Source of the DNA: Chrysomallon squamiferum | Taxonomy: Eukaryota > Animalia > Mollusca | Assembly (NCBI GenBank): GCA_012295275.1 | Contig: CM022672.1 | Location: 15,066,001 to 15,130,000 of the forward strand | Length of the DNA stretch: 64,000 nucleotides | Reading direction: 5' to 3' | Shown: piece by piece, positions 1,660 through 44,924 of the stretch | Layout of the letters: every line of letters starts with the position of its first letter | Position numbering within the stretch: position 1 is the first letter of the stretch | Translations under genes and position numbers: made by a program | Notes under the pieces: model-generated | What the model saw: the letters and a program-made list of their open reading frames with translations, nothing else | What the model was told of the DNA's origin: nothing | Database searches by the model: none

Positions 1660-1775
1660 ATGTATCACAAAGATTTCTGACTGAAATAAAATTCTGTTTC
1701 TCGATTAATAAAAATGTGTTATCACATTGAATAATTTTATTTTTATGTAGTTGGATAATTCACCAAACACAAATA

Positions 1776-1777
1776 CA

Positions 1778-1833
<56 letters not shown>

Positions 1834-1965
1834 TAATAATAATAATAATAATAACAATGATAATGATGATAATGCTGATGATTAGGGTGGTGGTAATGAT
1901 GGTCATAATCATAATGATGATGTCGACACAACAAACAACAACAACGATTATTATGATTTTTATTA
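1776..1965. repeat. (AAT)n/(GAT)n/(AAC)n compound microsatellite downstream of Hog copy 1
   Basis: Visible triplet runs. A homologous compound run lies at ~6132-6235 after copy 2, so it belongs to the duplicated unit. Confidence 0.9.
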
Positions 1966-3145
1966 TTATAATTGTTTTGTTTTTTTTGTTTTTTTTGAAA
2001 GGCCTCCTCAGATCTGAAAGTCCTAAATTTTACGTCTAGAATTATTTTTTTTTCAGCCTAAATAACTAACACTCTCTCTCTCTCTCTCTGTCTCTGTCTG
2101 TCTGTGTGCGTATATGTCTCATACTGACATAATCTCAGTCGTAAAAACTGTAGGGTCGTCTACTACTATTACTCCTTCATCGTCCACAACTACTTGTACC
2201 ACTAGCACGACCAATGCCATTGCAACCAACTACACGTGTTACTTCAGCTACTCTTTAACACAGTAAGATCACCTACTTTGAGTGAGAGATATTAAGATCA
2301 TCCGGGCAATTTTCTGTGTTGAATATATATATAATCAGTCACCTGGTTTAACAGATCCAGAAGATTCGAGGAAGAAAAATCATATTAAATAAATTTAAAT
2401 TATGTTCTGCTGAACGATGTTTCATACTGAAAAGAGACGACAAGCACATTATAATATTCAAATTAGAGAATAGATAACAGAGAACTGTAAATAAAAAAAA
2501 AAAGGCAAAACATAGCCTGCTTTTGGATATTTTATTTTGAGTAATAAACTTACAGCGTATGATGATGTGAACACACATCTGTCTGAAACTCGTGACAGAT
2601 AAAGAGACATCTTGCGTGTATCAAAGCATGTGATATACATGCATAACGTATAAAATACACACGTATGTCCTTAAAATACATACATATGTATTTGAAATTA
2701 CAATAGTATTTTGATTCTGTATAAATACATATATGTACATATTTTGAATTAATACAAGAGATTTGTAATTTTACAAACTTTTGTTTAGCAATATTTCCTC
2801 TGTATCAAAGACAGTTATACTAAATAGTGTAAATATGTGTCTCAAGAACATAAATATCGCTGCTCATAATTAACATGGGGAATACGCACACATACACCCA
2901 TACCCACGCACACATATATAAAACATATTTGCAATACAAATAATAAATTTTCAAAAATCTGCAAAACCTTTCCCGTTATATAACTAATTATGACAATATG
3001 GTAATGCTGCGCGACCCAAAATGGAAATATTCAACCAAAGTCAGGTACCACAAATATGTGCAAACTTTTTAAGATTAATATTAAAAATAACACTGCATGA
3101 AATATTTCTTATTACAGAATAAAAATGATCCAGATTATAGCATAT

Positions 3146-3181
<36 letters not shown>

Positions 3182-3613
3182 CCTTTTAAAACACTTGCGG
3201 TTATTATAGCCATCGTAACAATCTGTTGAATATTTGTTAATTATTTCTAGATAATGGTAAAACGATAAATTATTTTAAAAATAAAATTATAAATGAAATA
3301 TTTCACAACATTAATTTAAATATTTCCATATTCAGAAATAGAAAAAAAAAAATGTCGTAGCGACTTTTTTTTTTTATGTATTTAAAATATTATATATATA
3401 TATATATATAAATCGTGTACGCCAGTGATCATCAGAACTACTACAGGCATTTATTATTAGAATAAAACAATAACGAGATCTTCTCACTCTTCGTTTTGCG
3501 GTAGAGGTTAAACACTTTTGTATTTTTATAAATTAGTTCGACGACTTTATTACGGATAGAATTTATTAAATAACTGTCACGTTATTTATCGAAGAAAGAA
3601 GCGCAGCTGCTAC

Positions 3614-5987
3614 ATGGAAGCTAAATTCATCACCCTTTTTGTTATCACGAGTCAATTTTTCTTTGTTCTTTGTTTCCTTCTTTTCGTGGGAGGTTACGGT
3701 AAGACTGTGAATTCGTTTTTATCTTCAGCTGAAATATAATTAATGTTTAGATCTATTTCTTTTGAGTATAAGGAATGGAAGTATATAGACTGAATAGTCA
3801 ATCTATTCTGATGTGATCCTGGGGTGAGTTTGTAATGAAATACTGTGTAACAAATATTAAATTTTCGTTCTCTGTTTTGTCGAATATAAATTATAATCAA
3901 AGAAAACAAAACTGAACTTTACCTGAACGATAATTTTATTTACTTCAGTACCAAATAAAAAATATAAAAAATTGCAGGTATAAATATTTCGTAGGTTGAT
4001 ATAAAGAATTGAACTTTTTGCAGATTACAGCAGAACAAATACGTTTCGTTACCCGATTAGTTACAAATCTACCGACAAGCGCTTGATGCCCGAAACTGGA
4101 AAATGTTTTCCTGGGGATGCCACTGTTCTTCTGGACACAGGGAAATCCGTGCAGATGAAAAATCTTATTGCAGGGCAAAGGGTTCTCACTGGTAAGTCAA
4201 CTTTTGAATTTCCTTTCACTGTTTATAACACGTCTGTTTTCTGACTGAACGAAAGTTTGTATTAATGTCATATACACCTTATTAATTAGCAGCACCATTT
4301 CATCCTCCTAGCAAAATAGCAACTCTTTGCCACTTGCGACTGTCGTTAAAAAGGAAAACATTTTTAATTGTACAGGTATTATCCTTTTAATGAATACTTT
4401 CATATTACATTATGCTCTGCTACAGATATCTAAACATAGTCTAAAGATAAAGATACATACCAAAAAAAAAATGTGTTTTGCTTTTCATTTCAGTACAAAA
4501 TGGGAAGCGAACATTTTCTGAAGTCAGAACATTTCTTCATCGCCAACCAGAATTAAATACAACATATTTGACAATGATTACAGAACAAGGCCGTCGACTT
4601 ACTCTTTCAGAATCTCATGTTCTATTTGTTTCAGAAAATAGGTCAAGCGACATGGAACCTAGGTTTGTTTTCCCCAATTTTCCCCTCGGACGTACATTTA
4701 TCATTAAGGCTTTCCTAAATAATGTTCGTACAGCTTATGTATGAACGATTTCGTCACGGGAAAGTATACATGGTAAATCTAAGGCAAAGAATTACTAACA
4801 TTTTAGTAATAAAAACAATCCTGAACATTGTATTAACGAACTAGTGGATATAGTAAGTGGATAAATAAATGTGTAACAACTTTTCCTCTTTAAAATATGT
4901 ACGTCATCTCAGAGCCCAAGGTCGGACATTTAGCTGGTTACCGATACTGAACAAAATTCTTGTTTTTACTATTTACATCATTAACAAAAAGTGCAACATC
5001 AAATTCACAACGTTAAAACATCAACGAGTAGCCTGTATAATTTTATTTTTTATATAAAACACTAATTAGTTAAATATTATTAAAATACAATATGTAGAAC
5101 TGCAAATATAGATACCTTGACACGTTAAATAATGTTATATTGTGATCATTGTATTTAAACTTTGTTTTGAAAAAAAAAAAAATTAATAGAAAATCACAAT
5201 ATAATGTTTTAAGTGTCTTTCACATTAACATTGGAAGCAGCTAGAAAATACACGAATATCATACTTAATTTGTCTTCAGACTTATAGGAACATATCTCAT
5301 AAAATTCGATCAGGTAAATAATCTGGCAGGAAAGAAATACGATGTGCTGTTACTTTTGTTTTAAATAATATCTTTCCTTCTTCAGATTTGCTGGATCTGT
5401 GAAACCTGGTGATTATTTATTCAACGTGGAAAACTGCCCAAATGATCTCTGTTCAGAACGAGTTGTACAAATCACTGTTTCTTTAAAACAAGGTAAATCT
5501 GGTAGTGTGTGTCTGTGTGTGCGCACGGTGAGATGACGAATAAAACAGTTAATTTCATTTAGTTTTTATTTTATTTTATTTAGGACTGCAAGATGAAAAT
5601 AATAAGTGGTTACTGTCTTAAGACATCAGTTTTATCCTGCACAGCTATCATTTCTGCAGAATAAAGCTGGTATTATCTTAAAATATGAGTGCGTGTGAGT
5701 GCGTGTGAAATGTGTGTGTGTATGTGTCGATCTGACTACAAATTTGGATTATTTATACATTTATAGGTTTGTACGGTCCACTGACAGAAACGGGAACAGT
5801 TGTTGTTAATGGGATTCTGGCATCTTGCTTCGCACATTTTGTTGAACAAGACTGGCTTCAGATCACTACATTTCCATATCGACGATTTCCTTGGTTGTTA
5901 CAGCCTTGGCAAGAAGACGGTATGAGTCCTATATTGCTTATGGCAAAAAACCTGCTGCATGTTTTGTCGGTGACAGTTCACAATTAA
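3614..5987 (+). CDS. Hedgehog-related secreted Hog/Hint protein, tandem copy 2 (complete, ~249 aa): signal peptide + ~28-aa N-peptide + Hint + SRR-like tail
   Basis: Exons 3614-3698 (MEAKFITLFVITSQFFFVLCFLLFVGGY, donor GTAAGA), 4024-4191 (DYSRTNTFRYPISYKSTDKRLMPETGK|CFPGDATVLLDTGKSVQMKNLIAGQRVLT), 4494-4662, 5386-5492 and 5767-5987. They total 750 nt in one open frame. Hint Cys1 codon at 4104-4106. Exon 1 is the least certain part. Confidence 0.85.
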
Positions 5988-6339: not shown

Positions 6340-7310
6340 TCCCTTATATGTTAATGATGGATGGAGGTCTTGTCTCAAGATAACATGCAAACATCATGAC
6401 CACCACCTGTATCTAAACCGCCAACGATTAAGACTAAAATATCTTCCGTAGTTCCTCCATAATGGCAAATACATTTAATCACTGGAACTGTCGTGGGTTT
6501 AGGTTCAACTTTTTAGAGAATAATGGTCGGCGTCACTTGAAAGAGTTCAGAGATGGATGCATCTTTGAGTTTAAGCATCTGTGAAGCAGTTTAAGCATCT
6601 TTTAAGCATCTTTGATGCAGTTGAGTGCAACAATTGTCGATGCTGACGATCCCATATCTTTTTATACTTCATACTCGAGAGGTTCACCTACGAAAGCCTA
6701 CGACGCATAACCTGCATAACTATCACCTTGATAGGACTGAAGCTCATTAAGAGATGAGACAGAATAAGAAGTCATCTTGAGAAATTATTTCTCCAACTCC
6801 ACGTAAATCTATATGGAATAGGATCCGTAAGGTCAAGGGGAAATAATTCAGTATTACTATCCATCACTTGTCTAGCAATTATCACAAATATTGCGATGTG
6901 ACATAGCCAATGCTTTGGCTGATAATTTTTGTTACAATTCGTCTTCTGCGATTTATAAAGATGATGTTCTGTTAGTTAAAAAAGAAAGAAAGGGAAAAAA
7001 AAAGAAAAAGAAAAAACTTAAAAACAGCCTATTAACTTCAAATGTGGAAATACTGAGATGTACAATTTTTTCTCTCTCTAGAAAAGCTATGGAATGTTCT
7101 TCGCAGATTTCATGATACTGCAGTAGGTCCAGCTGACATTCACTATCCACTTATTAAACACTTGCCTGAATCTTCTTTCCGATACATTTAATATAATCCA
7201 GGTTTCTGTAACTTTCCTTCCGATTGGTGGAAAGCTATTATCATTCCTATTCCGAAGCCTGGAAAATGGTTGTAAAACACTTAAAACAGTATGCTTTATC
7301 AAAATGTTCC
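6340..7310 (+). mobile_element. Degenerate, internally deleted non-LTR retrotransposon (I/Nimb-like LINE)
   Basis: ATG at 6462 is followed by HWNCRGFR (APE endonuclease start). Further fragments IWNRIRKVKGK, DIANALADNF, LLKHLPE and NFPSDWWKAIIIPIPKPGK (RT N-terminal region) carry stops and frameshifts. Confidence 0.8.
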
Positions 7311-16501: not shown

Positions 16502-17213
16502 TTTATTTATTGCATACCATGAAGGCACAAAGTCGAATGAAATTTAAAAATAGGAATTCGAGATCAATGTAAGAGTTTATGTGCATGAGCGAGCGCCTAT
16601 ATCATAATGTGTTTTGTTCTTTAATATTAAATGCTTTTCGAACATAATACCCTGGTAAGTAGCGTGCAGTGTTTGAATATCTAACAATGCTTATATATTC
16701 AACTGTCACATACTGATTAGATTTACGTGACTGCCTTGAAAGAAGTCAAAACGAAACCAGGTTCAATAACAGCCTGACAAATCGTATTATATATATATAC
16801 ACTTGTAATACTCAACTCTGGTTGATAACAGTAAACTCAGGCTATATTTCTCGCGGTTGTTATGTTTTGTTCAGACTTGCATTAATCGAAGCGAGAATTG
16901 CCAACATTTGCGTCAGTGGTAACAATAAGGCGTAAGTTATATATTGTTTGTTCTGGATTTTATTTTGTGGATGGATAACGAATGTATTTGAAAATGTTCT
17001 TCATGAATATGTCTGTTTAACAGAATCAGATTGGTAAGATAATTCAGAATTAAGGACATAAGAAAGTGCACGGCCGGCATTATAAATTGATCACAAAGAG
17101 AAATTGCTGTTAATAATACTAATAATAATTCACTGAGCTATTACCGAAACATAAATACTATCAGGTCGGGAATAAAAGAGAAATATTAATTTGACCTCTA
17201 ATACTATATCAAA

Positions 17214-18750
17214 ATGGATTTTTCGAAATTTCGACAGTCAGGTGATCTATCTGATATCACAGTAACCGTCGATGACTCGGAGTTCAAACTTCACAAATTC
17301 CCGTTATTTGCGAAGTCGGATTACTTCTGCAGTTTGGCCCGGTCTGGATCGACGGATTCTACGGTTGAACTAGAATCATTTCCAGGAGGACCGCAAGTAT
17401 TTAGTCTTGTAGCTGACTTCTGCTATAACATGCCGGTTGACTTTACCAAGAACAATATCGTATACATAAGATGCGGAGCCGAGTACTTACGAATGAATGG
17501 GCTTGATAACTTGGCAGAAATATCCGAAAAATTCCTCCACGACACAATTACATCAGCAAAGATGAGTAGATCAACTGCAGGAATAATAACCCTTTTACTC
17601 TACTGCAGCACTGTAGAGAAATTAGCAGAGAAAACAGGAATTGTATCCCACTGCATTGAAGCACTGGTTGACTGTTGGCTAAAACCGCCAACAAAATTCA
17701 GTCCTACATTCAGAAAGCCTCAACTAGATATTCACACTGACGATCTGGCTTTGAAGAACTTGTGTTCACTTCCAAGTATTTGGTTTGTTAATATTCTTGC
17801 ACTGGGACGTGATAAGGGTGTTAAGTTGTCTGACTTAGCAGAGATGGCAGTAAAATATGTGTCATCTGTTCTTGAACGTGCAGAAACCGAAGACCCGAAG
17901 AGCAGATCCGAACAAGGAATAGCTAAAGCTATCGAAATCAAATCAACATCAACAATCGACGACAGTGACATCGATTTAAGCACTATATCAAAGAGTCCAT
18001 CTATTATTACGCCACTAAGTCCGTCGCTTACGTCATCAGAAACACGTAGTTCATTAGTGAGTTCACCAGCTTCTAAAATCATCGACTGCAGCTTCAAAGA
18101 GAGTAAAAGAGAACCTGCTGCAGTCAGAGATCCAGGGAAAATTTTGGACGCTGTGTTGATGAGTCTACCAGAGGAGGCTTACTCTGGACCATTCATGACA
18201 ACTGAATGGTTGACGAAGGTTCTGCGAGTTGCTACAGTTCGTGGGTGTTCGTGCCGAAGATTTTTAGTAAAGATAGCAAGTGAAATGCTAAACACGCTTT
18301 CGCCTGAAGATCTGTGCATTATATCGCCCTCGGTGCTTCACGACATAGTGGTGGAGTCGTCTGGTCAGGATGGAGTGAATGCGGAAAAAGCTGCAAAACT
18401 TGTAGACACTTACATGTCAGAAATGGCGAAAAAAGGAGTACTGACAGCCGAGACGTTCAAACTTCTTGCTTCGGCAGCGCCACCTGATTGCAGAAGCAGT
18501 CACGATAAAATATATGATGCTTTGGAATACATCTTGAAATCAGGTTGGTATTACAATATATCCAAATTTCCATCACCACCCCAAAAGGTTTTAGATCCCA
18601 ATCAATCCCAGTATGACTGATAAATATTATCACCATTTCAATCAGTTCTTTTCTCTTTGATGAAACTGTGATCTGTTACTAGTCATTATTACTGGGATCC
18701 AAAAGTTCAACTTGCTTTAAATATAAATAAATAAATAAATATTATTTTAA

Positions 18751-18808
<58 letters not shown>

Positions 18809-19781
18809 AGAAAGACAAAATTAGCTCGGACCAGAGGCAGGAATTGCTGGACATTGTGAACTTTAACCTAATGAGTGAAGCAGGCCTTCAGAGGGCGTGC
18901 GATTCTCAGCTCGTGCCACCGTCTTACGTGGCCAGAGGAGCCCTCAGTCTTTGTGCCAGACTGAGAGCGGAACTCGATTCGGTTAAGTATATCGCTCAGA
19001 TGCAGGAGCAGGAACTCCAGAAGTATCATCGGCAAAAGTCGGACACGTCACCCCCGGGAAACGAACTCACTAACATGAAGAACCGATCAGATTCAGGTGG
19101 GTGTTTTTTTTTTTTTTTTTTTTTTTTGTTCCACTGAGTTTATATTTCTCTAGAAATCTAGAAAGAAAGAAAACAAAAATTATCATATATATTACATAAT
19201 TTTTGTTTTATTTATCAAATATGTTTTAAATTCAGTCTTTTAAGCGATGAACCAGAAATTTTAAAATTTATAATTATAAAATATATTGAATGGTTTCCTA
19301 CGATTACATCATAATATAACATTCATTTGTTAGATAAATAATAATGTGTTCTGTTCTTTTGAGTTATTTTAAAATATACATCTGTTCGTTTTTCGTATCA
19401 ACGTAGTAAATGTAATCTGACAGTGACTTGAACATTTATTTCTACACAGGTTTCTCTGAGATTCCTGCTAAAATCAGTCCCACATCAACCGACGCTGTCA
19501 AGGCTGCTCATGACGTTCTCTCTGCAGCTAGAACTAAACTGGCCACCCAGGATATTTCGAATTTCAGGCCTGTTCATCGATACCCTCCACAGTCCACTGC
19601 GTACGGCTACGTGGGAACAGTCGAACATGACATCACTTTCGAGGATGAGATGGAATTCAAATTTGATCGATCTTTCAGAAGCCTCGACCAGAGAATCAGA
19701 CAAAGGCCAACCTTTACAAGTTCCAGTTCATCAAACCATTCCACACCTCGGTCTTATTTCCCTTATTCTTACCGATACTAA
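17214..19781 (+). CDS. BTB/POZ + NPH3-domain + coiled-coil protein (NPH3/RPT2-like, NRL family), ~649 aa
   Basis: Exons 17214-18543, 18809-19096 and 19450-19781 total 1950 nt in frame. NRL-type BTB: SDITVTV..FKLHKFPL..KS...FPGGPQVFSLVADFCY...NIVYIRCGAEYLRM..NL..SEKFL. NPH3-domain motifs: LCSLPSIWFVNIL...GV, ILDAVLMSLP, LTKVLRVA..GCSCRRFL, AAKLVDTYMSEMA..LTAETFKLLASAAPPDCRSSHDKIYDALEYILK, then ISSDQRQELLDIVNFNLMSEA..RACDSQLVP and LRAELDSVKYIAQMQEQELQK. Confidence 0.85.
18749..18805. repeat. (TAT)n microsatellite abutting a splice acceptor
   Basis: TAT run directly before CAG (18806-18808) of NPH3-like exon 2. Confidence 0.9.
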
Positions 19782-22533: not shown

Positions 22534-25500
22534 ATGGCGAGTTTTAGGTAAGTATTTAAAATACTAAATGTAGGATGTAAATTTAGTCATTTAATTTATA
22601 ATTAAATAATTGGATTGTGTTTGCAGTTCGAAAATTATAAACTTAACCGTAGGCGTATACAGCTGAGGATTCCAAAATATACGGGGTATACCAACGTTTA
22701 TTTTCCAAACAAAAACAAAGAAAGAAAAGAAATCAGCTGTATCAGTTATAATCCTAGTGTTAATCTATTTATTATTATCTAAAATATGTAAAACAGCAAT
22801 ACATTGATTATTTAGATAGTTATGACTCTCTGATTCATTAAATTTACAATTGAATATCATGAATTTGAATATTTGTGTCTTGTCTATCCGCGGGCACCAG
22901 AACTCGGCTTGTGCTTATTATAATATTAATTATTAGTTATAATATCAGTTTTGATATACTGCTATCAGATAATAATAATGACTGACAGCATACAAGAACT
23001 GAACAAATCGAATTGTACTGTATAGTGAAGATAAACAATTGAATTACTAAATTAGATTTGACAAATTGTATTATTCTGTTAACACAATAACAGTATTTTA
23101 AGCAAATTAATGCCATTTATAAATAACAATTCATACTCGTCTTATTCATTGAACTGTTGTAGTAGTGGTAGTAGTAGTAATAATAAATTTGTATGGATGT
23201 AAATTGAACTGTGAACAAATTTCCATAATTATTGTCAAGTCCAGCAGCTTCGACAAACAATATATTTGACTGCAGTAGCAAGAGATTTTAATGTTTCCTT
23301 TTTGATGTAGATGATAATAACACATATACAGTATTAGCTCTATATTTTTCTTATTAATATAATATAAACATTTTTACCTTTCAGTCCGGAAACAATCCGG
23401 CTAGGAGTGGTAGAAAAACTTGATGTTGTTTTTGGTAAACTGTATGAGATATGGACTGATATTGGGATCTGCGAGAGTCAGATGGAAGAACGAGCAGGAG
23501 CAGTTCTAAAACATCTTGACAATCTGCTTGATGAGATGGTTGAGGAAGAGAGTGTACTGAGAAATGAGATTCAGCAGAATATTCAAGAACATTCAGCAGA
23601 AGTTGCTGCACTCTGTACAGAATTGCATTTACCACAGTATAAGGTATTATTATTAAATTCTCTTCCTAAAGCTGTTATAACACACAGCAATCTATACCAA
23701 ATTATATTTTCATGTATATAAGATATTTCATGAAGATTTCACATTGGTTTCTCATCCTAAAATTGTATTAGTGCATTCACCATTGTACAAGGATTTATTA
23801 TTTCAGAACTGTTTCTTCTTACCCTAAAAGTATTCTAACCTGAAAATATGTCAAGAATGCTTAGAAAAGATGTCTGCACTACAGAATTACATTTACCACA
23901 GTTAAATGTTTTAATTACAGTTAATGAATGAATGAACAGAATATGTCAATAGCAAAATTTAAAGAGCTACTTTGTGATGAGTTGAATTGAACTGAACTTT
24001 ATTCATACTCAGGCTGTAGTCTGTGGCAAGTGAGGACACATTCATGTAGAATTTAATATAATTATTGCAGTTATAATAGGATTGTGGATTTACAGTAATG
24101 TGCATAATAATAAAAAAATATATCAGCTAGAGGATTTACAAAAAATGTTCACGATTAGATTACAGAAAATAGAATGTTTTCTAAGGACACCAGCTTTTTT
24201 AGAGTTAAATAATTTACAAAACAAGAATATACTTGATTTACATTGACAAAAAAACATTCTTAAAAACATATATATAAATATATAATGAAACTGTTGTCAT
24301 GGACATACTGGGCACAATGGACATATTCTGTTTTCTAATGGTATATATTACCATCTTCTGCTTTCAATAGGAAGATTACCATTTGAATGTCTAAACTGTA
24401 ACAGTGGGCATCAGTATTTTTTCTCTGTAAAGTATAACATTGAAATATGTCTCAGATGCAACTGTATCTTTAAATAGTTTATAAATACTGATCTATAAGC
24501 CTTGAGTTAATGCATGATTCTAACATGATTTAGAAGCACTAGTGATAATCACATATATGTACAGCCAACATCATTGAGAACAGATTTAGCATGTAATATC
24601 AATATGTGGTTTAAAATATTGGTGATATTATATTCAGTAATAGTCTGTACACTAGACGACTAGTAATGATAAGTACTTTCCCATGATTAATTAAAACCAG
24701 AAAACAATTATTTTTACTTTTATAATAATATACACTGAATAAAGTACAAGTTCTCCATTTAATAAGTTCATTGGAGTAGATTTCCTCACAGGTAATAACA
24801 ATTTCATAACCTGGTTACATAATTTTTCCAAAATCCCCAGATTTTCCTACCATATAGAAAAACTGGTAAAACCATGTCAATTAACTTAGGTTGACACTGG
24901 ATGGACATCTTTCTTGTGTCATGTCAAAGCAGACAGTGCAGGCATCTTTGACCTGACTTAGCATATCATAAAATAATAAAAATGGCTGCATCTGTCTGCT
25001 TCTTGGCTTCCATCACATTTCGATTCTTCATCCTAAGTTGGTACTTTGCACACGCAGCTCAGGTATCTGTGGCAGGAGATCCAAACCTAAGATTGAACTT
25101 TGTAGTGGAACACTGAGTAGTAGAGCGAATAACTGACATGGTTCTTGAATAACTCGTATTTTTTTTGATTCTGATGTCACTTGGCAAGTACTTCCAGCCT
25201 GGTGTCCCTCTACGACCATAGTGGCTGGCTCTGCAGGTAAACATCTGGAAGTGGGCCATGACTAGCTCTTCCTTTGCCAACTTTACAAGAACCACCCCTG
25301 CTTTCTGGATGTGCATTAATGTAATTAGTAATAATTAACCAAATGAACTTTGAACTTAAAACAAATAACACTAATTCTACAATCTTTCAGTGAATTCCAT
25401 TCTACCAAGATTCATATTAAATCACTTTAAATAGTTTCTATCAGCCTTTGAGTTGTTTTTTGAGCACATCTAGGATATCTCGGGGTTGATGTATTGGTAG

Positions 25501-28500
25501 TTGCAGTACATCGTCAACAGTATCATTAATGGCATTAGAAGCATCCTTGATGGCATTAGAAGTAACTGTTCTGTTTTTCATCTCGGTCTCTACCTGAACA
25601 GTTCATTCAACAAATTCCATTTCAGATTGAGTACCAACTGCCGACAGTTCTGTGGAAGCATTCCTATTATCCTCGGAATACGCACATTTACAAAGTTGAT
25701 CCACATGTCTTTTACACACAAAATCTCCAACTTTCACTCTGTAGGTAACAGGCCCTAGCTGACACAGTACTTTTCTACTCAACCACTTGTCAGATCCTCT
25801 GTAGTTCTTCACTTGAACTGAATCTCCAATATTGAACACTCATGTTTTACTTACTTTTGGAATAGTTCTCTTTTTAACAGTTCTCCAAACAGAACGCAAG
25901 CTATTCAATCTTGTTTTTTCTGCTTTCCACATTTAACAATCACCTCAATTTGCCCAAGGACTGGTACCACTTCATCTGTATAAGTTTTCAACACAATTGA
26001 TGTTGATTTCAATACACTGTTTTCTTCAATTTTTCCTGATAACTCTTATTAGAAATTATCGAAACAGAAGCACCAGTATCTACTTCCATTTTGAATGGCA
26101 CACCATTGAGTTCCAATGAAATTTGAATTTCTTTCACTTTCATAGATTTTGCTGAGAAAATCATTGTCATTACTTTCCATTGCAACCTCTTTATTTTCTA
26201 GAACAGCTTTTGTAATTTCTGATTCAGTTTTGTTACTTCCACTTTCTTCATGAACAACATGAATTTTGAAACCTGTTTCAGATTCAGTATTTTCACTTTC
26301 CAAATCATTGGTACCACTTTCTGATTCCGTTAGGTCCCTATCAGAATCTTAATTCACAACATGAAATTTAGAGTTTTTCTTTTTCAACTTTTCAAATTTC
26401 TTTTTTTCTTTTTCCATCTGTTTATGTTCCTGTCTTTCTACTTTTTTCTTTTAATTTTGACATTTTCTACTCTAATGTCCTGTTTCATTACACTTTTTGC
26501 CTTTTTATAAAACCATGCATCATGATGGTGATTAGTTTTACCACACCGGAAGCATTCAATGACAGAAACTTTGTGGAACTTTTCTGTTTCTGACTTAATT
26601 CCAATTTTCAGCATGCCAGTTTCTCTAGCTGCCATTTCCATACTAACAGCTATTTGCAAGGCTTTCCTCAGTGATAAGTCATGTTCAGAGAGAAGTTTTT
26701 TCTGTATTGACTTTTCAGACAGACCACAGACAAAAATGTCTCTTAATGCTTCAGTCAAAAATGCATCAAATTCACAATGTTCTGTCAGTTTTCTTAATTC
26801 AGCCAAAAATCCACTTACAGTCTCTCCAGGCTCTTGTTTCTGTTGATAGAATTTGAACCGTTCCGCAGTCACCAAAGGTTTTGGTTTGAGATAATTTCCT
26901 ATCAAGGTTTTCAATTGTTTGTAAGTCTTACTTGCCGGGTTCTCAGGCCAAGTCAGATTTTGAATCAACCTGTAAGTCTTGACACCAGATACAGACAACA
27001 AAATGGAACGTTTCTTTTCAGCATCGTCTACATCATTCGCCAACAGATACTGTTCCAAATGTTCAATGTATTCATCCCAGTGGGAACTTTTTATGTCAAA
27101 CTCTTCAACCTTACTACAGGTAGCCATATTTCATAAAGAGTTAATTTCAGGAAACAGTTCATCTCATCCTCGTTGGCAATTGTTATGTTTTAGCATTAAA
27201 ATGTAAAGTTCATTTCAGTTTCCAAACAATTTATTTCATTTCAAAATGGCTACGTACAAAAACTAACATACATTCACGATGATGTCATATAATTATATCT
27301 CCCTTGTTCCATTTCCCCTAAACATTATAAACTGTAACAGTGTTAACCATAACACCATTTAGATACAGCAAATCCTGCTTAAACTTCAAATAGTAATATC
27401 ATGTGTTTCAAGATACAGCTTTAATCTATTATTTAACACAGTGGTTTAGAGTTTACCAAGGCATCTAAGTAATGTAATATGTATGTCATTTTCTAGAGTA
27501 TTTTTATCACCACTTTTATACATTGGCTTGATTATACCTGACTAACCATGAGTCAAGGAAGATATCCATTTCAAACACTAAATTAAAAGGTTTGACATAA
27601 ACATATATCATCAACAGTTTGCTTAATAAATTAATTAATTATATTATCTAGACCTGAAGCTTTGTTGTTCTTTGCATGAAGCTAACTAATGGTGTAGCAT
27701 GTGTAATTTGTTTATTCACTCTTGTTACACTGTGCCTGCGACTGTGCCATGTTGGGCCTGTAGTTTCCACTGCATGTCTGGTGTGTACCTGTCAGTACCA
27801 TAGTTCTTACAATTAATGCACTTCACATCAACAGTTTGCTTAATACATTTATTAATTATATTGTCTGGACCTGAAGCTTTGTTGTTCTTGAGATATTTAA
27901 CAACTATAAATATTTCACTTTCTCAAACTGTGGTAAAATCTGCTTCTGGAGTGGGATCATCACTAATGTTTACATCTTTAAAGTCTTGGTACAGTGCTTC
28001 TAAAGGTGGTAAATTACAGTCAAGTTTGTTGTGTTTTTAGGAGTGTACAAAAAGCTCTCATGCCATATCTGCTAAAATCTTTAATTTAATTTTTTTATTT
28101 TCCAGTTACGTCTTAATATTATATTCTTGTACTGTTTACTTGCCTTTAGAAGTCATTGCTTGTTATTTATTGTTTTCCTATTTTTGTAATCTGTTCTGGT
28201 TTCTCTGTGTTGCATTGACTACCTAACTATGCCTTATTTCTGCAGTTGGGGATAGATCTGCTTCTAGTATATCCAAATATATTTACTGCAGTGTTCACGA
28301 ATAAGCGACTGACACTGTTCACCATGGTATTAAGCTACCATACAACCGAATCTTTAAACTTAAACCATAATATGTATTCAGATGTGTTTTGATAAACTAG
28401 GTATGTGCTTCTCAGTTTAACATGTGATTTTTCATTTCTGTTGTTTGTATATACTGTATAACCTGGTATTTCTACATTATCAATATCTTCAAGTTTGGCA

Positions 28501-31500
28501 TCTACTAGGCACAAAATATCATACTGATTAAACATTTTTTTTATAAATTCTGGTATATGCAGTTTTGTTTCCAAGCCACAAGCATGAAAAATAAAATATT
28601 TACAGAATCAGAAGTGTTGACTGTATTTGTGTAACCATGGTTGTTCGATACTTCAGTCATTTCATTTTGATTGTCACCAGTGTCAATCTTCCGGCTGTCT
28701 TAAGCATGGTCTTCTGTCGGTGAGGTGTAATTGCAGGCACACTTGTTCGGATTTATAATTTGTGGGATGTATTATGGCTTGTATCTGAATAAAAAGTTGG
28801 TCATACCACTAATGTCACACGGATTCAATAAATCTAGCCTCAATAAATGTTTCTGTGTTCCACAGACTCATGATTTACTGACACCAAAATGAATTCTTTC
28901 AAAACTTCAGAATTTCTTCTGAGAATTTCTCTGACTTTCAGTCTTGGTATTTGGTGGCATAGTGGTGTTTGCATATGATCAAATGCAAAAGTGTTTTCAT
29001 GTTTCATTTGTTCTTTAAGCAATTAATTTAGTACTTGCTCTGCATCCTTGTTGTCTTTTTCTAGAATTCAGTTAAAAATCAGGTTGTGTATGAATATGTA
29101 ACACATTTTCACAAAGATCTTCATAATAATGTTAGAAACTGTCAGTATCATTATAACATTTGGCTTACTTTTTCCTTCATAATTTCAACCACATCTGCTA
29201 TTTTCTTTCTTTCTACACAGGATTCTTCAAAGCTAGTATTTACAAACTTTATGGATTTTTCTGGATAAAACAGACTGGCTTTTAAATAATTATTACTGTT
29301 AGGAAAAGTAATCATATTTATTTATAATTCAGCAAAAGGATGGCATGTCCATGATACAAAGAGAGAAGGATCTCAGAGCCAAACTGGATAGCTTGAAAGC
29401 TGAAAAATCGGAGAGATTGAGGATTTATAAAAACTTCAAACTTCAAGACCAGCATCTGTGTGACGTCCTTCAGATGACTCCCTACTACATCCCATCAGGA
29501 ACAATCCCCACCAAGGAGCAGTTAACTGAACTGGAAAAACACATAGCAGCAAGGAATGTTGAAAAGGTTTGTTAAAATACAGCACAGATGATTTCATGTT
29601 AAAAACTTAAAGGAATGGAAGGCAGTTCAGTGGTCAAAAGTGTTGATGTAAAGCATAATTTCACATGATTGGACTGTTTTAGTTAGACTTTTTATGTCAG
29701 AGTGAGACAGAAAGGTTTCCTAATACGTTTTATAAATGTACGTGTGACTTTTTTCTTTTTAGTCAAACTGTCAGCATTAGCTTTTTTTCAATTTTAAAGT
29801 AACTATTCAAGTCCAAACTAAAAATTTATTTTTATTTAAATATTATAGATTGATTTGTTTGACAGCATATGCATATTCATTAATAAAGAGTCAGATTACA
29901 TTAATTAAATCAAAGGTTTGATGTTATTTTAACTTGTAATATGTATTTTGTTTTTGTTTTTGTAATAGCGTGAAAGACAAGCTAAGTTTACATCGACCAA
30001 GAAAAAGATTATTGAGCTGTTTAACTTACTGGAGTGCAACCCAGACACATCGTTTGAGAGGGAAATTGTCTGTGAAGATGATGATTCTTTTATACTGTCA
30101 ACAGAAAACATGACGGCACTGAAGAGTCTGCATGAAGAGGTACAAGGGATGATTTACAGTGTCCATTTACAGCACATTAGTTATAACAAAATCTTTGGTT
30201 TATCAGACCAGCACAGTGTTTATTTATCGTCTATTTCTACCTTAGTTCTGATTTTTTAAATATTAAATGATAGTACCTAACTTGATAGTGAAGAGCTTAA
30301 ATATAAATATGTATTATCTTATGTCAGTAAGAAAACGAAACAGTTATATTTAAAACAGTGGTGAAATTTTTAAATTTAACTCTTTTAATTTAAACTTTAA
30401 TTTTAATTTTTCCAGTATTGTTGCTGATTTCTCTAACAACGTTTTGTATTCTCAAAAAAATAACATACAGCAAATATGAATGCTGCCATTTATTCTGTTT
30501 AACCATAATAGACATAAAAGTTTCAATGAATTAGCACTATATTTAATTATATATATTTTGTTATCCTGTTTGTTTAATTACATCTGTATGATAGCCAATG
30601 TAATTTCATGTGTGGGTATCATTAAACATTCATTCATTCATTCATTGAATTTTATTCTCTGTAACTTCTTTTGTTTTGAGTATATGGTGTATGGTAGAGG
30701 TATATGCTAAGCACACTTGTGTGGGTAAATAAGCAAAATCTAGTAATGGCAGATGCAAAAAGTAAAAACAAATTTGTACAGTATTTGCTAAATAGACATT
30801 CTCATCTCGAAAATTATGATTTGCGTTATTTTCTAAAATTATAATTTGCGTTATGTTATATTCAGTTAAAATATTGTGCACATTTTACTAACATATTAAA
30901 ACTTATCATACTGAACCTGCTCTGCTGTGATATTTGGAAAGGGATATTTAGCAACCACATATTTTCTCCAAAAAGTAGTTAGAAAAAAAATTGGTGAATT
31001 ATGGTAAGTTGTAAATACATTTTGTGTTCAGAAATTTATAAGGATATTTTTTTTCTCTTTATTTTTAAGCTTGAAAATAAGTATGAGAACTTAAAACAGG
31101 CCACAATGACACTGTGGTCAGATCTGTATGCTCTCTGGAACAGGCTTGATGTATCAGATGAAGAGAGAGAAAAATTCAAAGAAGGCAAAGATGGACATAA
31201 ACCATTAGTTCTGGATGCCTTGCGAAAAGAAATCGCTAGGTGTGAACAACTTAAATTTCAAAACATCCAGCGTTTTGTTGATGGCATCAGGAGTGAACTT
31301 GAGGTGTTGTGGAACAAGTGTTACTTCAGCAAAGAGCAGCGAGAATTGTTTAAATTTATGCATGAAGGTTTGTTTTTTTAGACATTGTTTAAACATTTGA
31401 CCTTTCTTCATTTCTGTTTCTGTAAGAAAGTGAATTGTAGAAGAAGAAAAAACCCCATATCTGTTAACCTCAAAAACTCAATCAAAAGGATTCCAATGAT

Positions 31501-44046: not shown

Positions 44047-44496
44047 CTATGCTTGCACCTGGACCTTGAGTAACATCTTCAAATGACAAGTCATATCATC
44101 ACACTTTGCTGGTTCATGATTGGTACTGCCAGGCATCCAGTGTGATGGAGGTTTAGGAAGTACTTTAGGTGAAGGTGGATCACTGAATTTGGCACCAGCA
44201 TAGGCAACAACAGACTTCTCTTCAAGGCTGGGTTCAATCGTTATTGATGGGCAGCGAGCTCTTTTCTTAGCCCTTTCTCCTTCCATCATAACTTGATGCT
44301 GACGATTGCGATTTGACACCAATGTTTTATTTGGATGCTGCGATTTTGTCGATGCATTTCTCATGTCATTCTCTTTGGACCCAGAATATCTTTTCTGCTT
44401 CAAATGATTAAAAGGTCCTTTTAACTGATGCCCCATTTTGACATTTGACCTCTTTTTGTCCTTGATATTTGGCATAGCCAGTGTAGACAAAACCAT
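44047..44496 (-). CDS. PNRC: Proline-rich nuclear receptor coactivator (PNRC family), 149 aa, single coding exon
   Basis: C-terminal [22 protein letters not shown] (PNRC signature) followed by [12 protein letters not shown] (LxxLL). First ATG at 44494-44496; a possible acceptor lies at 44505-44507 and a 5'-UTR donor near 44844. Confidence 0.93.
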
Positions 44497-44924
44497 TTGA
44501 AATTCTAACAAGCACCACACCAAATATTTGACTAAATATTTGAAAACACACAATTACTCGATGTTCGTTCTTGTAATCCACAAAAAATACCGTTTTCTGG
44601 TTGTTGTTTTGTTTTTTCAAAGCTTTTTCACAAATTATTCGAATAAGCTTTGTTTACATTTACAAATGAAAGATGGCGTCTTCGTCTTGTTCTTCTTTCC
44701 GATATTATCGTCGGTAATTGAACAAAATTCTCAAAAACGTCAACTTTTTCTTCAACGAATTAAGTCTTTAAATAATTCCTAGCGTCTTTACAAGAAAAAT
44801 AATTCGAATCAAAGATTTTTAAATTAAAAAAGTCATAAAAATACCTGGGCTTTACCCTCTCTACTCTTCAAAACTAATCTCCTTCCGTCTACGTTTCTAC
44901 TCCTGCTGATGTCAGCCAGTCATA

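Follow-up and report, generated by a model that had tools for sequence, protein, structure and literature searches.

A probably Lophohog-derived gene predicted to join a short cysteine-free peptide to a Hedgehog autoprocessing domain in the vent snail Chrysomallon squamiferum

Hedgehog (Hh) proteins process themselves through a Hint-fold domain. Its C1, together with a TxxH motif, makes a thioester that is then passed to C143, and cholesterol is activated by D46; C1, His72 and C143 are required residues (PMC12054796, PMC9163320). Related proteins place other N-terminal sequences before this domain. Burglin described in 2008 the 'Short-hog' proteins of enoplean nematodes, which consist of a signal peptide, a predicted N-peptide of 15, 25 or 34 residues and a Hog domain, and that paper treats the addition of a sterol or another adduct as unproven for hh-related proteins, including those of C. 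elegans (PMC2362128). In lophotrochozoans, Lophohog was described by De Oliveira in 2016 (PMC5103448; 11 limpet genes) and in PMC9695228, where it is characterized by a unique N-terminal domain.

We analyzed a 64,000-nucleotide stretch of Chrysomallon squamiferum DNA (the window), for which the original prediction was a tiny secreted peptide released by a Hog domain and carrying a C-terminal lipid or other adduct. As an idea, the tiny peptide was anticipated by the Short-hog layout (PMC2362128). The window gene resembles Xiphinema Shog1 and Shog2 and Trichinella Xhog3 in carrying a leader, a short N-peptide (28 versus 15-34 residues) and a Hog domain, a likeness that is conditional on the splice between exons 1 and 2, but it belongs to another phylum. 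Since its Hog domain nests in a gastropod clade, an origin independent of the nematode Short-hogs is likely. The layout is known from nematodes, and the cysteine-free, Lophohog-derived molluscan form would be a variant of it. A literature search, which reached a minority of subscription journals, turned up neither a cysteine-free molluscan short-hog nor the Lys/His46 state, an astacin-Hog fusion or an adduct test on a molluscan hedgehog-related protein. A separate metagenome scan reduced 388 pattern matches to three loci, all of 12 residues; of these, L002 was followed up and, being antisense to an unrelated ATPase-like ORF, rejected as a chance match.

Gene model, transcription and tandem duplication

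The gene, referred to as copy 2, occupies 3614-5987 on the + strand and has five exons, all with GT-AG ends, which form one open frame of 249 amino acids with its stop at 5985-5987. Exon 1 (3614-3698) provides the start codon, a hydrophobic leader predicted to be a signal peptide (residues 1-27) and a phase-1 donor. The mean 19-residue hydropathy over residues 5-23 is 2.43; the signal peptide call is based on hydropathy and Pfam, and the cut after Gly27 was placed by eye. The 5' part of exon 2 (4024-4103) encodes residues 29-55 and is contiguous in RNA contigs with the start of the Hint domain, while the 3' part (4104-4191) encodes Hint block A, which aligns to SHH 7E2I and includes the catalytic Cys1 as Cys56 (4104-4106). 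The predicted N-peptide comprises residues 28-55, 28 amino acids directly before Cys56 with no cysteine, and contains a Lys-Arg pair (4077-4082) followed by seven residues up to C1, the last of which, Lys55, is the -1 residue. Exon 3 (4494-4662) carries a His at the D46 general-base position (4538-4540) and the block B Ser-x-x-His motif (4607-4618). Exon 4 (5386-5492) covers the central Hint strands, with a Cys pair that the alignment shows to be common to gastropod relatives. The end of the Hint domain, the C143 equivalent (Cys197, 5826-5828) and an SRR-like tail followed by the stop lie in exon 5 (5767-5987); within the tail, helix 1 starts at 5853 and helix 2, in which the HWY motif is replaced, is at 5919-5933. 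The original prediction of a leader, a peptide of about 28 residues, a Hint domain and an SRR-like tail is thus borne out by the frame.

The Pfam Hint family (PF01079) matched three of the four scanned Hint-coding exon pieces (E 4e-6, 8e-11 and 5e-11), the first of which, from exon 2 (E 4.4e-6), does not reach the curated threshold. Exon 4, scanned as a 35-aa piece, had no Pfam match. The predicted lack of a Hedge domain also held, as the exon pieces gave no Pfam match to the Hedge family and only 55 residues precede C1. Between the stop of the upstream copy and position 4000, 3614-3698 is the sole exon of at least 10 aa that starts with ATG, has phase 1 and ends in GTRAG. Four candidates of the same type were found on the + strand of 6000-64000, none as hydrophobic as 3614-3698. 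A tblastn search of 1660-4023 with the N-terminal regions of 20 relatives, either Cys-rich or astacin, yielded no match at E<=1.

RNA was evaluated as assembled contigs from four runs of one study, compared over 3430-4690. The splice between exons 2 and 3 (4190/4493) was present in all four runs, whereas the splice between exons 1 and 2 (3698/4024), for which RNA confirmation had been sought, was present in none. The junction of exons 3 and 4 appeared as a loose end in three runs, and the fourth continued into intron 3. The exon-3 pieces differed from copy 2 by no more than one letter, while the two copies differ there at five positions, and the transcript was therefore assigned to copy 2. Copy 2 is a real gene that is transcribed and spliced. 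Exon 1 was partly covered in two of the four runs, by contigs at 3461-3651 (run X2) and 3570-3622 (run X1), neither of which joins exon 2; 3652-3973 had no contig cover, with a filter that drops some records. The exon-2 contig of X1 begins exactly at 4023. Such a start is expected when the preceding exon terminates in G without an A before it; exon 1 has this kind of end, which is indirect support for the joint. Another contig starts within intron 1. Separately, an X1 contig (3406-3622) joins 3435 to 3570, skipping 134 bases (3436-3569) with non-GT-AG ends and reaching further upstream; set beside the X2 cover of 3461-3651, this could reflect an allelic deletion or the 5' region of a paralog. 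The searchable text of four supplementary files (one scanned) of the vent-snail scleritome proteome contained no match for hedgehog, Hint or PF01079.

Of the predicted tandem array, the window holds two copies, one of them upstream of copy 2, with no further copy in 6000-64000. Copy 1 is represented on the + strand by exons at 209-377, 813-919 and 1433-1659, and its 5' exons lie beyond the window edge. The copies differ at 12 nucleotides across 156 codons, both retain open frames and the catalytic residues, and both have Ser-Pro-Ile at the HWY position. Their exons are about 97% identical, versus 79-90% for the aligned intron pieces. At 0.44, the dN/dS between them is not significantly lower than 1 (Fisher p 0.16). 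Copy 2 has one base fewer than copy 1 in a T run, which puts the last few residues in different frames (5961-5987 versus 1627-1659); the shorter run may be real or an assembly error in the homopolymer. The synonymous divergence (0.046) is smaller than the intron divergence (10-21%; 209-1659 versus 4494-5987), a pattern that hints at gene conversion over the exons.

Elsewhere in the window we noted a gene with BTB/POZ and NPH3-like domains at 17202-19781 (+; Pfam E 1e-13 and 2e-15), NPH3 being best known from plants; exons of a MAP65/ASE1 (PRC1-like) gene at 23368-31381 (+; Pfam E 7e-11 for 23368-23718); and a Pfam motif of the proline-rich nuclear receptor coactivator (PNRC) at 44047-44553 (-). 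By motif, 26438-27130 (-) resembles a retrotransposon gag ORF, and 6480-7270 (+), shortly after the end of copy 2, looks like the remains of LINEs.

Relatives of the Hog domain

Searching exon 5 against cluster representatives gave 38 matches, the best named of which were gastropod proteins of Gigantopelta, Haliotis and Patella, while a word-indexed search of the same exon among longer proteins left all 30 candidates without a score. From profile searches (32 and 68 matches) came also the named Lophohogs of Acanthochitona and Lottia cf. kogamogai, together with roughly twelve Gigantopelta models whose N-termini vary and include astacin fusions. Over the Hog domain, identity of the window protein to the Gigantopelta paralogs is 50-59%; Lophohogs of abalone, limpet and chiton reach 42-48%, and three sequences of Hh type 32-35%.

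An overview was taken from a quick tree of 51 rows, and a careful tree was built from 21 of them after long-branch, unnamed and near-duplicate rows were dropped. In the careful tree, the window Hog, on a long end branch of 0.8, was nested among Gigantopelta aegis paralogs (96/95, 95/96), and the window pair grouped with the only two relatives bearing His46 (92/87). The molluscan Lophohog clade of 13 rows, which includes the chiton Lophohog, had moderate support (91/89). The whole group was split from Hh at 100/99, the Hh rows being vertebrate and insect sequences, with molluscan true Hh and the nematode Shog1, Shog2 and Xhog3 left out. AU tests rejected both a grouping with Hh (p 0.027) and a placement outside the molluscan clade (p 0.042). 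The suspected Lophohog link was therefore upheld by the Hint phylogeny. The suggestion of Lophohog as a short-N group did not hold: a pro-region and a peptide with six cysteines are present in the named members and in the proteins closest to them. In the alignment of named Lophohog members, from which this motif was read, six Cys lie within the last 45 residues before C1, as they do in all nine non-Gigantopelta molluscan-clade rows that reach C1; the window N-peptide has none. The gene thus appears, from these comparisons, to be Lophohog-derived rather than a canonical Lophohog, with the six-cysteine N-domain missing.

Compared with the Lophohogs of Acanthochitona crinita (APD15680.1), Lottia cf. 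kogamogai (APD15678.1) and Lottia gigantea (LOTGIDRAFT_236513), the window protein likewise has a leader and a Hog domain of the same clade without Hedge, and shares Ser or Thr at T69, the absence of HWY and, with most members, a non-Gly -1 residue. It differs in lacking the six-cysteine N-peptide, in having His rather than Lys at D46 and Gln at the His374 position, in its shorter C-tail and in a peptide with no detected homolog. Among its nearest relatives, the Gigantopelta aegis Hog paralogs, all RefSeq models that were produced automatically and called 'hedgehog-like' or 'metalloproteinase-like', His46 is shared by XP_041360543.1 and XP_041372238.1; unlike the window protein, these two keep Cys-rich N-peptides with 6-8 Cys in the last 45 residues. 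XP_041356210.1 has an equally short N-region, and XP_041355650.1 is an astacin-Hog fusion.

Two further observations concern the wider family. Five G. aegis RefSeq models (P0009, P0015, P0053, P0054 and P0059) fuse astacin (PF01400) to a Lophohog-type Hog domain and could possibly be self-releasing proteases. Moreover, P0090, P0030 (Centruroides) and P0094 (Macrobrachium), from scorpion and shrimp, have a Hog domain with a six-Cys N-peptide, retain Asp46 and Tyr435 and fall on the molluscan Lophohog side of the split from Hh (100/99). Lophohog may thus be older than Lophotrochozoa, against its description as lophotrochozoan-specific.

Active site, tail and predicted processing

The window Hog shares with the Hedgehog autoprocessing domain (Drosophila 1AT0, 6TYY and human SHH) the Hint fold, C1, His72, C143, the two-helix tail, Pro379 and Arg381. 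It differs in having no Hedge, Lys at -1 (Gly in seven of eight Hh), Ser at T69, a replaced HWY and Thr at F377. The Thr69-to-Ser exchange occurs in 15 of the 21 clade relatives; in Drosophila, T326A greatly lowers activity (PMC12054796, PMC9163320). With C1, His72 and C143 kept, self-cleavage of the predicted precursor is fairly likely.

At the D46 position, 19 of the 21 clade relatives have Lys and two have His, as does the window protein, and none has Asp; His46 also occurs in one of eight true Hh (Trichuris). An unnamed exon fragment, P0068, has Asp there. Among PDB sequences, exon 3 matched 6TYY most closely, an engineered D46H mutant; the window protein has the same His naturally. A structure model of the His46 relative P0052 (mean pLDDT 77), standing in for the window protein, matched 6TYY best and then 1AT0 (E 1e-13 and 1e-12; rmsd 1.7-1.8 A); its Hint strands are followed by helices. 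D46H SHH autoprocesses in cells (PMC12054796, PMC9163320), and the exchange widens the sterol range, with faster transfer to coprostanol and epicoprostanol (>200-fold for coprostanol; PMC9163320, PMC8529194). PMC13738340 yielded nothing on D46H or on the -1 residue. As a speculation on the Lys46 relatives, a lysine beside the thioester could permit an isopeptide cross-link.

For the tail, SHH mutants H374A, F377A, R381A, H433A and Y435A lose cholesterolysis in vitro with DTT cleavage intact (PMC7242414); in the window protein these positions are Gln, Thr, Arg, Ser and Ile. Pro379 and Arg381 are kept, and Gln at His374 also occurs in one of eight true Hh. All eight Hedge-bearing Hh have the HWY motif. 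In the window protein it is replaced and no aromatic residue is left in it, whereas a Tyr or Phe directly ahead of the motif is retained in most clade relatives. Because His433 and Tyr435 of HWY are replaced by Ser and Ile, canonical cholesterol transfer by the window Hog is doubtful, and the N-peptide would probably carry no lipid tag. The conservation of the SRR-like two-helix tail across the clade suggests that it still binds something, which makes a different adduct conceivable.

Taken together, the reading that we rate somewhat above even is that of a Lophohog-derived gene without the Cys-rich N-domain, whose precursor likely cuts between Lys55 and Cys56 to give a peptide of about 28 residues, likely with no canonical cholesterol tag. 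The leader would be taken off in the ER; Cys1, aided by Ser-x-x-His, would then form a thioester that is handed to the C143 equivalent, as in Hh. Given cleavage, hydrolysis to a free peptide would be the leading way of resolving this thioester, at somewhat less than even chances, a sterol-type ester would be a serious contender, and a different kind of adduct, for instance an amine cross-link, would be improbable. Trimming by a convertase at the Lys-Arg pair may follow and would leave the last seven residues as a C-terminal piece.

Competing readings and significance

A somewhat unlikely reading is that the peptide is a vestige, a pro-peptide plus linker left in a recent, decaying duplicate that lacks the N-domain, and that its cleavage product has no role. 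The basic site of Lophohogs often precedes the six-Cys peptide, while the Lys-Arg pair of the window protein is followed by seven residues only, and in Gigantopelta P0056 an astacin-Hog leader sits almost directly on the Hog domain; this layout, which is possibly a mis-prediction, suggests that short forms arise through loss of the N-domain. The end branch of 0.8 and the shifted tail of copy 2 point the same way, as does the peptide itself, for which profile searches returned no homolog and an ESM Atlas look-up of exon 2 gave generic Hint clusters only. Decay is nevertheless at odds with the open frames and intact catalytic residues of both copies, with exons that are better conserved than introns, and with the transcription and splicing of copy 2. 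We regard as unlikely the lipopeptide version of the original prediction, in which the cleaving precursor esterifies the 28-aa peptide, or its trimmed 7-aa form, to cholesterol or another sterol and so yields a ribosomally made lipopeptide. His46 supports sterol transfer in engineered Hh (PMC9163320), the window pair clusters with the two relatives that alone have His46, and the two-helix tail is conserved in the clade; on the other hand, HWY has lost its aromatic residues, sterol addition was unproven in 2008 even for the hh-related proteins of C. elegans (PMC2362128), and neither a receptor nor a conserved peptide came to light. A signalling role for the peptide is rather unlikely.

That the gene model is incomplete, with other exons upstream of exon 2, or that the leader is an uncleaved membrane anchor, so that no tiny free peptide forms, is very unlikely, although the missing exon 1-2 joint in the RNA runs, the X1 contig that reaches upstream and a hydrophobic stretch of about 23 residues would all accommodate it. 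The 2.3 kb between the copy 1 stop and exon 2 of copy 2 hold a single first-exon candidate and no N-domain match, and intron 1 has no stop-free frame beyond 32 aa.

For the family, attachment of adducts by hedgehog-related proteins was an open question in 2008 (PMC2362128), and the gene offers a convenient test case, with a cargo short enough for direct mass spectrometry, a natural D46H and Lys46 relatives to compare it with. Should it do no more than hydrolyse, it would be one more Short-hog, and loss of the N-domain would recur in the gastropod gene expansion. A broader and distinctly unlikely reading is that molluscan Lophohog-type Hogs are rewired ligases, without Asp46 and HWY, that attach some adduct other than cholesterol, whether a non-canonical sterol, a different lipid or an amine cross-link, to N-terminal cargoes that can be exchanged, namely disulfide peptides, astacin proteases and a linear peptide of 7-28 residues. 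If this were true, the gene would be a natural D46H ligase producing an animal ribosomal lipopeptide.
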